From NCBI GenBank assembly GCA_963716175.1, contig OY970296.1, positions 1,760,001 to 1,824,000 of the forward strand: a DNA stretch of 64,000 nucleotides, given 5' to 3'. Source of the stretch: an uncultured Armatimonadetes bacterium. GTDB taxonomy: Bacteria > Armatimonadota > Hebobacteria > Hebobacterales > Hebobacteraceae. Positions within the stretch are counted from its first letter, which is position 1. Each line of letters starts with the position of its first letter. A program made the position numbers and the translations under genes. This document shows positions 2,987-49,146 of the stretch, piece after piece. The notes under the pieces are model-generated. The model did not search any database. It was not told the origin of the DNA and was given only the letters and a program-made list of their open reading frames with translations.

Positions 2987-3268
2987 GGGCAGGAGGCAAG
3001 TGGCTAGGCTCTCTGGGCGCTGGCTAAGCCCGACCTTGCCGGGCCGCTGGCTGGGCCGGCGGAGCCGGCCGCCATCCCGGCCCTATCGGGCCTAGAAGCT
3101 GTTTCATAACCTTCCCAGGGAGGTTATGAAACAGCACTGCACAACGTCAGGCCGTGGCAGGCGCATTTCATGCGAGGGCGTGGTGCGGCCAGCTAGCAGG
3201 TAGGTTATGAAATACGCTCTGGCGACACCCCGGCCCGGCGTAAGCGGGCCTAGGGGCTCCTGCCCAAC
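2987..3268. repeat. ~280-bp composite palindromic element, copy 1 (REP + nested twin-hairpin modules + inner MITE-like segment)
   Basis: Near-identical to 5845-6123; ends GGGCAGGAG...CTCCTGCCC; inner hairpin GCTGTTTCATAACC...GGTTATGAAACAGC at 3098-3135. Confidence 0.9.
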
Positions 3269-3284: not shown

Positions 3285-5666
3285 TCAGCCGAGAGGCAGC
3301 AGGTCGAAGGCACGGGCGATATAGACCGCCATCTGGTCGCGACTGCAGAGGTACTCCGGATGGTACCAGCCATCCGGATATCCGCCGGTTACGCCCGCGT
3401 CCTCGATGTACTGTATGTACTTGCGCGCCCAGAACTCACAGGGCACATCCGGGAACGGGGGAGCCTCGCATCCGAGGTCGGGTACGCCGGCCTCCCCCGT
3501 CGGGGTGGCGATGGCGCGGGCGATGAAGGCCGCCATCTGGCCGCGGTCAAGCTCCAGGGAAGGGCGGTAGACGCCACCGGTATAGCCTTCCACGATGCCG
3601 ACATCGTGGGCGTACTCGATGTACCTGTAGGCCCAGTGCTCGACCGGCACATCCTTGAAGGAGGGCTGGGCCGGGCCGGTCGGGACCCCGGCGTCGCCGC
3701 CGGCCAGGGCGCGGGAGATGTAGACCGCCATCTGGTCCCGGGTGACCACCTCATCGGGCTGATAGGAGCCGTCGGGGTAGCCCTGGACGATGCCCGCGTC
3801 GGCGCAGCCTTCGATCTCATCGAATGCCCAGTGATCCAGCCCCACGTCATCGAACCTGAGTATCCTCAGCCTGACCACCTGGCCATCGCCCTGGTCGGCA
3901 ACCCAGAGGGTTCGCTGGACGGGGTTCAGCGCGATGGACCAGGGCATGAAGAAGTGTCCGCCACGCCAGCGCTCTGTGCCGTCGGCCGCCAGGTGGACGA
4001 TCTGCCACTGTCCGTCATCGCCGGCCCAACACGATCCGTCCCGCGGGTTCACCGCCAACGTCAGAGGCGCCCCGAGGAAACGGGAAGTCTCGAAGCGACC
4101 GCCGCGCCACAGCTCTGTGCCGTCCGCCGCCAGATGCACCACCTGATTGCGCCCATTGTCAGCCACCCAAACCGACCCATCCGTGGGGTTGGCGGCGAGG
4201 AAAGCCGCGACACCGAACTGGCCGCCCTCCCACAGCCTCGTCCCGTCCGCGGCGAGATGGAGCACCGTGGTGTAGAGCGCCACCCAACATGAGCCATCGG
4301 TGGTGTTCACGGCAACAGGATCCGGCATCAGCAGCGGTGAGCTCCGCCACAACTCCGTCCCATCAGAGCCAAGATGGAAGACGATACCAGCATCCAGGTT
4401 GGTGACCCAGCAGGAGCCATCGCTTGGGTTCACAGATACCGAACTGGGAGAGGCGAATCTGTCGGAGCGCCAGATCTCTTTGCCATCTCCACTGAGGTGC
4501 ACGACCTGGTGGTTCCCGTTGTCGGCCACCCAGCAAGAACTGTCCGCAGTGTTGACCGCCACAGAGTAGGGCTGCGCGAAGCCACGCGCCTGCCACATTA
4601 GCGCGCCGTCTGACGCCAGGCGGACGATCTGGCTATCGGTGAGATCGGCGACATAAGCGGAGCCGTCCCCGGGGTTGACGCTGACTGAGAATGGCATTGC
4701 CAGCCAGCCGCCCCGCCACAGCTCTGCAGCATCTTTGGAGACATGGACCACCTGGCCGTGTTGCCAGTCCCCAACCCAGCAGGAGCCGTCTGCAGGGTCG
4801 GTTGAGAGCGGTCCTGTCGCAATGCCCCCGCGCGACCACAGCTCCACTCCAGCGGGCGATAGGAGCATAAGCTGCCCCGCGCCCGAGTCGCTTACATAGC
4901 AGGTGCCGTCCACGGGGTTGACTGAGAGGGAATCAACGCTGGCAAATACCGTGCTGCTCCATAGCTCCTGGCCGTTCTTGTCCAGATGCACCAGCCGGCC
5001 CGGTTCAGCCTCGCCAACCCAGCACGAGCCGTCGCCCTCGTTCACAGCTATAGCTATGGGATGTGAGGGCTCTGCGCTCCGCCACAGCTCCGTTCCGTCC
5101 TCGGCCAGGTGCACCAGAATGTTGATCGAGGAGTCTGCCAGCCAGCAGGAGCCGTCGAGGCGGTTCGCGGCAAGCTCGTTCGGAGTGCTGAACCCACCGC
5201 CCCGCCAGAGCACAGTTCCGTCCTTGGCCAGCTGCGCGACCTCGCCCACCGCCGTTTCCCCCGACCAATCGTACCCGCTCACCCAGCAGGTGCCATCCGA
5301 GTTGTTGACCGCGACCGCCTGCGGGCCCTTGAACGGGCCCCCGCGCCACAGCTCAGTTCCGTCGGGGGCAAGATGAACGATCTCGAGGTGCCGAGTGTCC
5401 GCGACCCAGCATGTCCCGTCATTGGAATTCACGGAGACGGAACTCGGGCCCCAGAAGCTATCCGTCTGGCTGAGCACTGTGCCGTCCTTCGCCAGGTGCA
5501 TCACGCTGCCGCCGATAGCCAGCCACGCGGACTGATCCGAGGGGTTGACGGAGACAGAACTCGGCCGGCCGAATGGGCTCCGCCAGGTCTCGACGACATT
5601 CTCGGAACGCGCAGTCGTGACCAACGAGAGGAGAAGAAGCGCCAACATAACGGGCCTTGCACTCAT
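3285..5666 (-). CDS. Secreted beta-propeller (NHL-like repeat) protein with three C-terminal SLH domains
   Basis: Signal peptide; many ~40-aa repeats SVSVNPxDGSCWVAD...VVHLAxDGTELWRGG; SLH motifs FDDVGLDHWA...GIVQGYPDGSYQP...TRDQMA. Confidence 0.85.
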   Translation of the reverse strand: MSARPVMLALLLLSLVTTARSENVVETWRSPFGRPSSVSVNPSDQSAWLAIGGSVMHLAKDGTVLSQTDSFWGPSSVSVNSNDGTCWVADTRHLEIVHLAPDGTELWRGGPFKGPQAVAVNNSDGTCWVSGYDWSGETAVGEVAQLAKDGTVLWRGGGFSTPNELAANRLDGSCWLADSSINILVHLAEDGTELWRSAEPSHPIAIAVNEGDGSCWVGEAEPGRLVHLDKNGQELWSSTVFASVDSLSVNPVDGTCYVSDSGAGQLMLLSPAGVELWSRGGIATGPLSTDPADGSCWVGDWQHGQVVHVSKDAAELWRGGWLAMPFSVSVNPGDGSAYVADLTDSQIVRLASDGALMWQARGFAQPYSVAVNTADSSCWVADNGNHQVVHLSGDGKEIWRSDRFASPSSVSVNPSDGSCWVTNLDAGIVFHLGSDGTELWRSSPLLMPDPVAVNTTDGSCWVALYTTVLHLAADGTRLWEGGQFGVAAFLAANPTDGSVWVADNGRNQVVHLAADGTELWRGGRFETSRFLGAPLTLAVNPRDGSCWAGDDGQWQIVHLAADGTERWRGGHFFMPWSIALNPVQRTLWVADQGDGQVVRLRILRFDDVGLDHWAFDEIEGCADAGIVQGYPDGSYQPDEVVTRDQMAVYISRALAGGDAGVPTGPAQPSFKDVPVEHWAYRYIEYAHDVGIVEGYTGGVYRPSLELDRGQMAAFIARAIATPTGEAGVPDLGCEAPPFPDVPCEFWARKYIQYIEDAGVTGGYPDGWYHPEYLCSRDQMAVYIARAFDLLPLG

Positions 5667-5844: not shown

Positions 5845-6123
5845 GCAGGAGGCAAGTGGTCAGGCCCTCTGGGCGCTGGCTAAGCCCGACTTCGCCGGGC
5901 CGCTGGCTGGGCCGGCAGAGCCGGCCGCCATCCCGGCCCTATCGGGCCTAGAAGCTGTTTCATAACCTTCCCAGGGAGGTTATGAAACAGCACTGCACGA
6001 CGTCAGGCCGTGGCAGGCGCATTTCATGCGAGGGCGTGGTGCGCCAGCTAGCAGGTAGGTCATGAAATGCGCTCTAGCGACACCCCGGCCCGGCGTAAGC
6101 GGGCCTAGGGGCTCCTGCCCAAC
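5845..6123. repeat. ~280-bp composite palindromic element, copy 2
   Basis: Direct repeat of 2987-3268 with scattered substitutions; flanked by CCTGCCCAACGAGGCAA on both sides. Confidence 0.9.
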
Positions 6124-14618: not shown

Positions 14619-14694
14619 GGTGAACGTAGCTCAATGGTAGAGCGCCGGACTGTGGATCCGGTGGTTGGGGGTTCAAATCCCCTCGTTCACCCCA
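14619..14694 (+). tRNA. tRNA-His (GTG)
   Basis: G-1 plus GTGAACG...CGTTCAC-C-CCA, anticodon loop CTGTGGA. Confidence 0.95.
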
Positions 14695-15504
14695 TTCTCT
14701 TGGCCGGGATAGCCGGCCCGCTTGGGGCCCAGGTCGGGGGTAAAGGCTGGAGGCGGAGCCTGGGTGCGGTGGTTGGGGGTGGCTAAGCCCAACGGGCCGC
14801 CATGGCGGTCGCCGCTGCCCGGCGACCTAGCCATTCAAATCCCCTCGTTCACCCCATTCTCTTGGCCGGGATAGCCGGCCCGCTTGGGGCCCAGGTCGGG
14901 GGTAAAGGCTGGAGGCGGAGCCTGGGTGCGGTGGTTGGGGGTGGCTAAGCCCAACGGGCCGCCATGGCGGTCGCCGCTGCCCGGCGACCTAGCCATTCAA
15001 ATCCCCTCGTTCACCCCATTCTCCTGGCCGGGATAGCCGGCCCGCTTGGGGCCCAGGTCGGGGGTAAAGGCTGGAGGCGGAGCCTGGGTGCGGTGGTTGG
15101 GGGTGGCTAAGCCCAACGGGCCGCCATGGCGGTCGCCGCTGCCCGGCGACCTAGCCATTCAAATCCCCTCGTTCACCCCATTCTCCTGGCCGGGATAGCC
15201 GGCCCGCTTGGGGCCCAGGTCGGGGGTAAAGGCTGGAGGCGGAGCCTGGGTGCGGTGGTTGGGGGTGGCTAAGCCCAACGGGCCGCCATGGCGGTCGCCG
15301 CTGCCCGGCGACCTAGCCATTCAAATCCCCTCGTTCACCCCATTCTCTTGGCCGGGATAGCCGGCCCGCTTGGGGCCCAGGTCGGGGGTAAAGGCTGGAG
15401 GCGGAGCCTGGGTGCGGTGGTTGGGGGTGGCTAAGCCCGACGGGCCGCCATGGCGGTCGCCGCTGCCCGGCGACCTAGCCATTCAAATCCCCTCGTTCAC
15501 CCCA
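14695..15504 (+). repeat. Five tandem 162-bp tRNA-His-linked repeats
   Basis: Units end at 14856, 15018, 15180, 15342 and 15504, each with TTCAAATCCCCTCGTTCACCCCA; about two variable positions in total. Confidence 0.97.
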
Positions 15505-15519
15505 TTCCTTGTTGCTCCT

Positions 15520-22879: not shown

Positions 22880-23205
22880 GTGATCGTGCTAGACGGGGAG
22901 CTAGCGGTGCCCTGCACCCGCAATCCGCTATAGCGGGGTCGAACTCCCGTCCGAGGGCGTGTCGTTTGGGGTCTGTGGGGGCGTAAGCGGTGTTGACGGT
23001 CGGGCCCTGCGCAGCGGGCGCTTTGCGAACCCCGTCAGGTCCGGAAGGAAGCAGCGGTAAGCAACGGGGCCTGTGTGCCGCAGACCGTCCGACCCGAGTG
23101 GCTAGGCCTGCCTATGGCAGGCCGCCACCCCGGCCCGAAAGGGCTTAGGGGCCGGCTGCGCTCATTCCGCCTGGGCGATCCGTTCGACGGCGGGTGCACG
23201 ATCAC
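22880..23205 (+). ncRNA. ffs: Signal recognition particle RNA, large (Alu-containing) type, with a 53-nt insertion
   Basis: TCAGGTCCGGAAGGAAGCAGC core; Alu-like GGGGAGCTAGCGGTGCCCTG...CAATCCGCT; termini GTGATCGTGC/GCACGATCAC pair; TGCTATAAT extended -10 upstream. Confidence 0.93.
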
Positions 23206-31939: not shown

Positions 31940-32019
31940 GGGCAGGTCGCGTGGCTAGGCCCGCCTGCGGCGGGCCGTCACCCCGGCCGCTGTAAGCGGC
32001 CTAGGGGGACCTGCCCTAC
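31940..32019. repeat. REP carrying a 56-nt twin-hairpin module (31952-32007)
   Basis: Removing the module leaves GGGCAGGTCGCGGACCTGCCCTAC, the exact reverse complement of the REP at 47280-47303. Confidence 0.85.
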
Positions 32020-37690: not shown

Positions 37691-37708
37691 TCAGCCTGTG
37701 CGATTCGG

Positions 37709-38764
37709 CTAGGCCAGTGTCTCCCCGTACGGCGCCCGCGCTACCCCGCGCTCTGTCACGATCCCGGCGATCAGCTCGGCAGGAGTGATGTCGAAGGCGG
37801 GGTTGAACACCTCCGCCCCTGCCGGCGCGACCGGCGTTCCGCCGAAGCCAAGCACCTCTTCGGCGCTGCGCTCCTCTATCGGTATCTGAGAGCCGTCGGC
37901 GAGAGAGGGGTCAAGGGTGGAGGTGGGCGCTGCCACGTAGAATGGAATCTGGTGGTGACGCGCCAGCACGGCGAGGCCGTAGGTGCCGATCTTGTTGGCC
38001 GTGTCGCCGTTGCGGGCGATGCGGTCGGCGCCGACGATGACGACATCCACCATGCCCCGCGCCATGCAGGCCCCGGCCATGCCATCGGTGATAAGGGTGG
38101 TCGGGACGCCGGCGCGCATCAGCTCCCACATGGTGAGCCGCGCGCCTTGCAGCAGCGGCCGCGTCTCGCAGGCCAACACCTTGACCGGGTTGCCGGCGGT
38201 CCCTAGGTCGCAGTGCGACCGGGATGGCGGCCCCTTGGGCCTAGCCACGTGGGCGGCCTTGATCACCGCCAGCGCGGTGCCTTCGCCTCCCGTGGCGAGC
38301 GCGCCGGTGTTGCAGATGGTCAGCACGCCTGCGCCGTGCGGGATAAGCGCGCGGCCGTGCTCGGCGATGAGCCGGCAGGTCTCAGTATCCTCCCGGTGGA
38401 TGGCGAGCGCCTCCTGAGCCAGCTCGTCGGCGGTGACACCGGCCGCGGCCCGGGATAGCATGCGGTCTATCGCCCAGAACAGGTTGCGCGCGGTGGGTCG
38501 GGTGGCGCGCAGCAGGGCGGCCGCCTCGGCGATCCGCTCCTGCATGCCCTGGGCTTCGCCCCGGGCGGCGAGGGCGAGGCCGTAGGCGGCGGCGATGCCG
38601 ATGAGAGGCGCGCCCCGCACCTGGAGGGTGCGAATCGCCTGGGCCACCTGCCCGACCTGCCGGCAGCGCAGGTATACCTCCTCCTGGGGCAGGCGGGTCT
38701 GATCCAGGATTACGACCGCATCCTCATCCCAGCGGATTGGGTCAATCTTGCCTACGGGCATCAA
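37709..38764 (-). CDS. mtnA: S-methyl-5-thioribose-1-phosphate isomerase with 16-aa insertion
   Basis: VRGAPLIG, RPTA, CNTGALAT, ETRPLLQGARLT, GADRIARNGDTANKIGT, NPAFDIT. Confidence 0.95.
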   Translation of the reverse strand: MMPVGKIDPIRWDEDAVVILDQTRLPQEEVYLRCRQVGQVAQAIRTLQVRGAPLIGIAAAYGLALAARGEAQGMQERIAEAAALLRATRPTARNLFWAIDRMLSRAAAGVTADELAQEALAIHREDTETCRLIAEHGRALIPHGAGVLTICNTGALATGGEGTALAVIKAAHVARPKGPPSRSHCDLGTAGNPVKVLACETRPLLQGARLTMWELMRAGVPTTLITDGMAGACMARGMVDVVIVGADRIARNGDTANKIGTYGLAVLARHHQIPFYVAAPTSTLDPSLADGSQIPIEERSAEEVLGFGGTPVAPAGAEVFNPAFDITPAELIAGIVTERGVARAPYGETLA

Positions 38765-38810
38765 GGCATTCCTTTCCCAGTGCAGCCAGCAGCACTATAA
38801 TAGCAGAGAT

Positions 38811-38836
38811 GGCGGGGTCGGGAGACCCCGCCCTAC
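38811..38836. repeat. GTAG-type REP
   Basis: GGCGGGGTCGGGAGACCCCGCCCTAC. Confidence 0.7.
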
Positions 38837-49019: not shown

Positions 49020-49146
49020 GGCGGGCATAGGTCCCTAGGCCTGAAGGGCGGGATGTCCCTAGGCCCGGTAGGGCCGGGATGGCGGCCGGCTCTGCCAGCC
49101 TAGCCAGCGGTCGCCGAATGGCGGCCTAGCCACATGCCCGCCCTAC
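49020..49146. repeat. REP carrying two nested twin-hairpin modules
   Basis: Minus strand: outer module 49032-49132 contains inner module 49056-49106. Confidence 0.8.

Follow-up and report, generated by a model that had tools for sequence, protein, structure and literature searches.

Introduction

The REPIN/RAYT systems, in which RAYT is the tyrosine transposase associated with repetitive extragenic palindromic (REP) sequences, and the IS200/IS605 insertion sequences are known from the work of Bertels and Rainey, Ton-Hoang, and Messing to move by 'peel and paste', with hairpin ends, an asymmetric bulge and no target duplication. In the passage of PMC10969869 that cites Ogata et al. 2000, Rickettsia palindromic elements (RPEs) are described as sequences with a length of about 150 bp that have integrated into numerous genes of Rickettsia. 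The part of a survey of GTAG- and CGTC-tagged REPs that is used here (Di Nocera, De Gregorio and Rocco 2013, PMC3733652) reports some REPs lying wholly inside open reading frames (ORFs) in several phyla, often as dimers and encoding 20–30 residues, with DNA synthesis and repair genes among the intragenic targets; the same part describes REP ends that often give a TAG stop to a neighbouring ORF, and REPs that lie inside other small palindromes. That palindromic inserts can add peptides to proteins in frame is thus already known. Here we analyse a 48-nt palindromic module that sits in frame in mtnA, the gene of methylthioribose-1-phosphate isomerase, within a 64,000-nt stretch (the window; contig OY970296.1, positions 1,760,001–1,824,000, assembly GCA_963716175.1) of the genome of an uncultured bacterium of the Armatimonadota.

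We find that the 48 nt are very probably a copy of a small non-coding repeated element that was inserted in mtnA in the recent ancestry of this lineage. Three lines of evidence carry this reading: an empty allele in close relatives that defines the boundaries to the base, a uniform spacing of the site in MtnA proteins from many phyla, and a genome-wide family of hairpin dimers that share the architecture of the module.

Results

A 48-nt insert in mtnA and its empty allele

The earlier note on this DNA had placed the module on the minus strand of mtnA, and both its exact coordinates (38247..38200) and the peptide quoted for it were reproduced (Table 1). The ORF aligns with methylthioribose-1-phosphate isomerase structures in the PDB (1t9k, E 1.7e-92, residues 9–349; 2yrf/2yvk, E 1.8e-90; 1t5o, E 2.3e-81), and the HMMER alignments to 1t9k and 1t5o open a 16-residue gap precisely at the module. 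A search of the whole genome (G000; 4.56 Mb in one contig) for mtnA returned one match only. The module begins at nucleotide 518 of the ORF, at codon position 2, and when it is taken out in silico the frame stays open for 335 aa and the joint reads H-A-A-G-N; the claim that exact deletion yields a normal MtnA segment is borne out by this frame and by its match to a real empty allele in relatives, described below. As single-stranded DNA the 48 nt have a predicted fold energy of -16.2 kcal/mol (z -3.24; 1 of 200 shuffles as stable), and as RNA of -28.3 kcal/mol. Rfam gave no match in the window between 37000 and 39500 at E values up to 1, and in RNA sequencing runs X19–X24 only 0.04 of the words matched.

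Table 1. Features of the window that are discussed in the text (window positions; strand left empty where none was assigned).
Feature	Position	Strand	Description
mtnA, methylthioribose-1-phosphate isomerase	37709..38764	-	351 aa; single copy found in genome
Inserted module, two abutted bulged hairpins	38200..38247	-	48 nt; MtnA residues 173–189, 16 residues added, one changed
Hairpin A, inverted unit orientation	38225..38247	-	23 nt: TGGC foot, 5'-side TA bulge, GG/CC, 3-bp inner stem, 3-nt loop
Hairpin B, forward unit orientation	38200..38224	-	25 nt: TCCC foot, GG/CC, 4-bp inner stem, 3-nt loop, 3'-side TA bulge
'Empty' GTAG-headed REP hairpin	38811..38836	-	~47 nt upstream of mtnA start; type filled with 47-nt dimer at 4 other sites
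Tandem array	14672..15511	+	162 bp x 5.2, 99% identity; one 54-nt family dimer per unit
54-nt dimers of the tandem array	14780–14833, 14942–14995, 15104–15157, 15266–15319, 15428–15481
Family dimer	23099..23151		53 nt; genome 1783099–1783151
CCCC-type unit	31981..32007	+	Degenerate partner; inside GTAG-headed outer stem; genome 1791981–1792007
Family dimer	49056..49106		51 nt; set in another dimer's foot, between its CCGC and its CA; genome 1809056–1809106

Orthologues cut from the genomes of relatives and aligned lack the 16 residues without exception (29 of 29), the closest of them, at 76% identity, coming from another genus of the same family. We extended the comparison to the spacing of two conserved motifs in 110 loci, comprising G000, the 29 relatives and 80 contigs of genomes or metagenome-assembled genomes (MAGs) from many phyla and from archaea. 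The span from Cys-Asn/Asp to ETRP is 37 residues in 107 of the 108 loci that bear the motif (it is absent in 2) and 53 residues in G000 alone. A loop of similar length in unrelated taxa, which the earlier note had named as the observation that would speak against an insert, is therefore not seen among these loci, and the insert appears specific to this lineage.

The empty site itself is preserved in wild populations. Comparing the contigs of four public metagenome runs (X1–X4) with positions 37700–38800 of the window, we found the site bridged without the insert by contigs of related populations in three of the runs (X1, X3 and X4). Record 28 of X4 (825 nt, depth 23.6) matches 38011–38197 and 38248–38800 with two letters between, its two parts having 13 and 32 differing letters (~94% identity), and record 20 of X3 (585 nt) matches 37979–38194 and 38248–38611 with five letters between. 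More distant relatives show a joint from 38180 to 38244 with 15 letters between (X1 and X3) and one from 38173 to 38261 with 39 letters between (X3). The net loss is 48 nt at all four joints, and the relatives that have the empty allele in X4 and X3 are about 94–95% identical in mtnA.

The X4 contig fixes the boundaries of the insert. Its joint codon is a synonymous alanine codon, and the window minus the module differs from it by one base, as compared with two when the boundaries are shifted by one base in either direction. Because the unshifted boundaries fit the empty allele best, the insert consists of two complete hairpins with nothing duplicated; at this site the empty allele of the relatives lacks TA as well as CTAG, and the target is not duplicated.

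At the protein level, the earlier expectation that the insert would fall in a loop agrees with an AlphaFold2 model of MtnA built on a 40-sequence alignment (mean pLDDT 92.6, pTM 0.91; Foldseek TM score 0.90 to both 1t9k_A and 2yvk_A). The modelled chain passes from a helix (164–173) through a coil (174–194) into a strand (195–199), and the confidence drops in this helix-to-strand loop, with mean pLDDT values of 75 and 52 for the 10-residue blocks of the insert region and values below 50 at residues 184–187. According to the model, the insert would lengthen the helix-to-strand connection of a Rossmann-like domain. Cys151 and Asp247, which we take from work on the Bacillus subtilis enzyme to be the catalytic cysteine and aspartate, occupy invariant columns across the 40 sequences and are kept in this MtnA. 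The encoded peptide is rich in Pro, Gly, Arg and Ser, is predicted with low confidence and, most probably, is carried along as a passenger that itself has no function.

A genome-wide family of hairpin dimers

The earlier note had assumed that the same module occurs elsewhere, which holds for its architecture and fails for its sequence. No second copy of the 48 nt with up to three mismatches exists in the window or in the 4.56-Mb genome, the best other copy being 87% alike over 47 nt, and matches to its sub-motifs within the window show no excess over chance. A strict scan for the arrangement foot-GG-stem-loop-stem-CC-TA-foot', in contrast, found 100 perfect units in the genome. A relaxed hairpin scan gave no overall excess (238 matches versus 272 in the reversed-genome control), and the foot classes that rose above the control were TGGC (72), CCCC (23), TCCC (15) and CGGC (5), the biggest control class having 4 members. 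The family was thereafter defined by these four foot classes and by a central-motif pattern. The 118 strict units of the four classes (23–31 nt) form 27 strict pairs, all of which share one inverted order and 24 of which have a gap of 0; for most of the 'single' units a degenerate partner could be seen by eye.

To define dimers independently of their stems, we used the central 12-mer CCGSSR-YSSCGG flanked by CTAG on each side. This pattern returned 87 dimers of 42–60 nt in the genome and 1 in the reversed-genome control. Their feet are perfectly complementary in 159 of 174 dimer halves, and pairing in the inner part leaves a loop of at most 5 nt in 147 of the 174, where 200 shuffles gave 13.75 on average and 23 at most. 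The halves have 32 distinct stem arms. What is constant in the family are thus the feet, the GG/CC and the bulged TA, while the stems are variable yet paired. CTAG stands near both ends of every dimer and occurs genome-wide at 0.26 of expectation. Since the foot types (TGGC, TCCC, CCCC and CGGC) covary with their internal partners, these CTAGs belong to the element itself and do not represent a target duplication. The 48-nt module is a member of this family of hairpin dimers, whose members share architecture and not sequence.

Many dimers sit within other hairpins. Twenty-eight of the 87 lie within an exact outer stem of at least 7 bp, 26 of these with the signature of a GTAG- or GTTG-headed REP, and a further 17 are nested in the foot of another dimer, precisely between its CCGC and its CA, and removing them restores the canonical CCGCCA. 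The other 42, including the mtnA copy, show neither outer stem nor foot nesting. One GTAG-REP type is present as 11 empty copies and as four copies that carry a 47-nt dimer at a single loop position; an empty hairpin of this type stands close to mtnA itself (Table 1). At the mtnA site, in the nested feet and in the REP loops alike, insertion is precise and without duplication, the REP-loop case being ambiguous by up to 2 nt.

The family extends beyond this genome. The pattern of the TGGC-type unit, with 79 matches in G000 and 3 in the control, is present in 12 of the 14 genomes examined from its family (among them G007, 28; G009, 17; G002, 15; G012, 14; G010, 12; and G008, 11) and with 83 matches in G018, which belongs to another family of the same class, whereas the remaining relatives among the 60 examined were at control level. 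The hairpin family occurs in at least two bacterial families of one class. An identical 23-nt TGGC-type unit is present in G000, G007, G009 and G018, that is, in four genera and two families, while most stems differ otherwise; the shared unit could reflect strong constraint or transfer between lineages.

Copies in other genes and the reading frame

On each strand the module is free of stops in one of three frames, so that a copy can stay open and in frame only if its length is divisible by three and its phase is the right one. Open copies were found in several genes besides mtnA. In the mutL gene (L117, genome C1:4498241-4500217), a four-hairpin, dimer-within-dimer element makes up a clean insert of 35 residues within the ATPase domain: in comparison with 9n2k, residues 91–164 correspond to chain positions 44–117 and residues 200–408 to chain positions 118–326. 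A MiaB/MtaB-like methylthiotransferase contains an open element between its UPF0004 (7–89) and Radical_SAM (151–321) domains. In 7 of 13 relatives this linker is roughly 15–20 residues shorter, and three relatives have long inserts of their own (L166 in G005, L170 in G008 and L173 in G018), one of which resembles a translated GTAG REP; the linker may be a recurrent landing site. In a 4Fe-4S protein, the ORF reads through a dimer in the C-terminal tail. ORFs that span dimers at genome positions 1350730, 3444243 and 4385642 were not counted, because domain evidence flanking the dimer on both sides was absent.

Two further genes are interrupted in the assembly. An IS3-like element (L121, genome C1:1960301-1962400) carries dimers in orfA (45 nt) and in orfB (48 nt), each of which brings a TAG into frame; among the other IS3-like copies, considered as a source of empty sites, none spans either insertion point. 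A dnaE copy (L119, genome C1:3075671-3079628) contains two hairpin dimers and a GTAG REP, is split into two frames at ~3077724 and has, relative to 5lew, about 90 and about 65 extra residues, the about 90 lying between the PHP and palm regions. It was not counted as an essential gene because it is a second, frameshifted paralogue beside an intact dnaE at C1:3849912, and represents either a decaying gene or an indel error of the assembly.

Under a stricter coding test, which demanded coding-like composition in 210 nt on both sides on the same strand, 7 of the 87 dimers remained. Frame continuity is seen in four of these, which lie in mtnA, mutL, IS3 orfB and the MiaB-like gene, and not in the other three. 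One of the latter three, a 56-nt dimer (genome C1:2700170-2700225) between two co-directional ORFs, by eye gives the upstream ORF its TAG stop, and after it come a ribosome-binding site and a GTG start codon.

The ratio of in-frame to out-of-frame copies is not a fair count, because a search for ORFs that span dimers is blind to frameshifting copies in dead genes. Likewise, nothing can be concluded from the 53 of 87 dimers whose length is a multiple of three, because the copies are non-independent and mostly intergenic. The suggestion that a length divisible by three fits selection for frame retention nevertheless agrees with what the genes show, and it looks like a survivor effect: the copies in mutL and the MiaB-like gene are open, whereas those in the IS3-like element contain stops.

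Other repeats in the window

Two further observations concern repeats elsewhere in the window. The tandem array at 14672–15511 (Table 1) is intergenic and is crossed by no ORF of at least 100 aa; it looks like a recent amplification of a unit that holds a family element. Two direct repeats of 280 nt (2989–3268 and 5845–6123), 96% alike, each end in a CCCC-type hairpin unit and enclose a 793-aa ORF (3285–5666, minus strand) with an internal repeat of 11 copies of a 47-nt core, spaced at least 123 nt apart.

Discussion

Origin of the mtnA insert

The element is a head-to-head pair of hairpins, each with the order foot(4)-GG-stem-loop-stem-CC-TA-foot'(4), in which the bulged TA puts a CTAG at each outer end. 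Its insertion in mtnA is exact, limited by the two hairpin feet and without target-site duplication, and leaves the fold and the conserved catalytic-site columns in place. The copy probably persists because it belongs to the rare insertions that combine a multiple-of-three length with the sole stop-free phase, in a tolerant loop; insertions elsewhere in needed genes would have been purged.

Several points weigh against this reading. The filled allele is bridged by none of the listed contigs of X1–X4 (in X1 the matching pieces break off at 38161 and resume at 38258), and the insert is thus known from this assembly only; the assembly may contain indel errors, as the dnaE paralogue split into two frames suggests; the genome holds no near-identical source copy, given the 87% of the best other one; and the placement of the loop at the edge opposite the active site is deduced from the usual topology of Rossmann folds.

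Comparison with described repeats

The earlier note had drawn a parallel to RPEs, which stands for the behaviour and not for membership. As with RPEs, a palindromic repeat lies in frame in unrelated housekeeping genes, adds a presumably tolerated peptide and has many copies elsewhere. In contrast to the RPE families, each of which encodes a conserved peptide, the module is 48 nt as against about 150 bp, consists of two bulged hairpins with variable stems and belongs to another phylum.

Tagged REPs, as far as the part of PMC3733652 used here describes them, also resemble the family. The family shares with them short G+C-rich hairpins, mostly head-to-head dimers, sub-families with alternative complementary stems, a repair gene as target (mutL) and the supply of a TAG stop (genome 2700170, by eye). 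Measured against the usual description of REPs, the units are imperfect palindromes of 20–40 nt in high copy, mostly extragenic (7 of 87 with coding-like flanks) and arranged as inverted doublets in a genome with a RAYT gene, whereas a terminal GTAG or CGTC tag and a RAYT gene flanked by the same repeats are lacking. Where the REPs of that account carry their tag, the units here have a CTAG half-buried in a 4-bp foot, a bulged TA and hairpins that abut without spacer.

What moves the element

Movement as single-stranded hairpin DNA, carried out in trans by an HUH tyrosine transposase of the RAYT or IS200 kind, is a possible route to which we assign a substantial minority of the probability. 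By analogy, such a mechanism would agree with three traits of the element: its hairpin ends, the missing duplication and its tendency to insert in other hairpins, at their feet or loops. With REPIN/RAYT and IS200/IS605 the family has in common hairpin ends, bulge asymmetry, the lack of both DDE-type terminal inverted repeats and target duplication, inverted doublets as the mobile unit and an enzyme that would act in trans. Candidates for this enzyme are present: five ORFs of 177–198 aa match NCBIfam REP_Tyr_transpos (NF047646) with 92–104 bits (cut-off 80). The link to RAYT is suggested by exclusion and analogy.

A number of observations speak against RAYT as the mover. The five RAYT genes are flanked by GTAGGGC-type or GGGCAGGAGC hairpins and adjoin no CTAG units, and the 20 RAYT-bearing loci of relatives that were scanned are also flanked by GTAG-headed REPs, with one unit near L151; no RAYT or TnpA gene is bounded by units. 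Y1 transposases are widespread among those genomes of the phylum that lack units. The units lack the GTAG/CGTC tag that, in the part of PMC3733652 used here, defines the surveyed REP super-families, and no fixed target tetranucleotide could be seen in the left flanks of the dimers, which vary, with 17 of 87 dimers following CCGC. As to the IS200 kind, all five Y1 ORFs remain under the IS200 cut-off (18.6–23.6 bits versus 55), and the TnpB domain (PF07282) has no match in G000. The co-occurrence of Y1 or RAYT genes with unit counts across relatives does not discriminate and is inconclusive: the unit-rich genomes G007, G009, G012 and G018 have a RAYT above cut-off and the unit-free G003 has a match of 58.5 bits, and the relatives are not independent.

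It is rather unlikely, but worth setting out, that the dimers are a separate, undescribed mobile module and not REPs in the RAYT sense. In that case, a unit of 42–60 nt would copy precisely, without target duplication and with a preference for the foot (CCGC^CA) or loop of hairpins, and a conserved factor would read the 4-bp foot, the GG/CC and the bulged TA and allow any stem. This factor would be a RAYT with a non-GTAG substrate, or else an enzyme so far unlinked to transposition. The remaining probability falls to other routes, for example hitch-hiking or template switching.

Alternative explanations of the insert

Of the alternatives to a recently inserted repeat copy, the one that survives best, though improbable, is that the insert has been taken into use, either through mRNA hairpins that act in pausing, stability or processing or through a selected protein loop. 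Both hairpins are fully paired, which protein-level selection would not maintain, and the predicted RNA fold is strong; moreover, the family feet are conserved across genera and one 23-nt unit is identical among them, as if a conserved factor read them. However, youth alone equally predicts perfect pairing, and because the insert is missing from relatives about 94–95% identical in mtnA and from all other MtnA loci examined, any function would have to be very young. The Pro/Gly/Arg/Ser-rich, low-confidence peptide and the lack of Rfam matches in the region point in the same direction.

Less credible is a miniature DDE transposon of the IS630/Tc1-like or IS5-like kind that duplicates a TA or CTAG target. 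IS630 targets CTAG, and it is the CTAG near both ends of every dimer, in a genome where this tetranucleotide is rare, that lends this reading its appeal. The family also resembles miniature transposable elements with inverted repeats (MITEs) derived from IS630, such as RUP of pneumococcus, in being small, non-coding and hairpin-rich with CTAG ends. Such MITEs, however, duplicate TA, whereas the empty allele has neither TA nor CTAG at the site, and cutting out the part between the CTAGs together with one of them would leave behind 10 surplus nt and shift the frame. In addition, the 4 nt lying outward of each CTAG core have their complement in 4 internal nt in 159 of 174 halves and covary with them, so these supposed flanks belong to the element and not to the target, and the nested copies restore CCGCCA exactly with nothing duplicated. 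The IS630-type transposase domain (DDE_3, PF13358) has no match in the one-contig genome, other DDE families not having been searched. An IS630 MITE as the origin of the mtnA copy was rejected in view of the empty allele, the covarying feet and the absence of a DDE_3 match.

Slightly less credible still is an assembly artefact, that is, a repeat copy misplaced in a metagenome-assembled genome. The filled junctions are covered by none of the listed contigs of the four runs, and the assembly, with a completeness of 90.85%, has at least one frameshifted gene. Against this stand the base-exact limits set by two complete hairpins, the one open phase and the intact flanks, all of which are unlike an assembler error, as well as the comparable in-frame copies in mutL and the MiaB-like gene. 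The copy is also unique in sequence, and because no other copy lies within three mismatches, the module cannot have been pasted from another locus. A native, lineage-specific MtnA loop that is palindromic by chance, which has the open frame in its favour and nothing further, is refuted by the 37-residue span in 107 of 108 loci, the 87 dimers against 1 in the control and the empty allele in close relatives.

Meaning of the finding

A literature search that combined 'Armatimonadota' with 'repetitive extragenic palindromic' found nothing, the motif itself not having been searched. New in this work are the mtnA copy in frame, the empty allele that goes with it and the arguments against a DDE transposon; the hairpin family is likewise new. 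The colonisation of housekeeping genes by in-frame palindromes is best known from Rickettsia, with a few other phyla added by the 2013 survey, and the present case adds a free-living, uncultured lineage of the Armatimonadota. It is an unusually clean case, with an empty allele in wild relatives and boundaries known to the base, and one genome provides a natural control, as copies are open in needed genes and bear stops in a dead transposase. MtnA with and without the 16 residues is a tractable pair for studying how an enzyme tolerates sudden loop insertions. For annotation, the lesson is that protein segments rich in Ala, Arg, Pro and Gly in such genomes can derive from repeats. Finally, the family is now defined by conserved feet, free stems, self-nesting and the lack of target duplication, which makes its mover a concrete and testable question.

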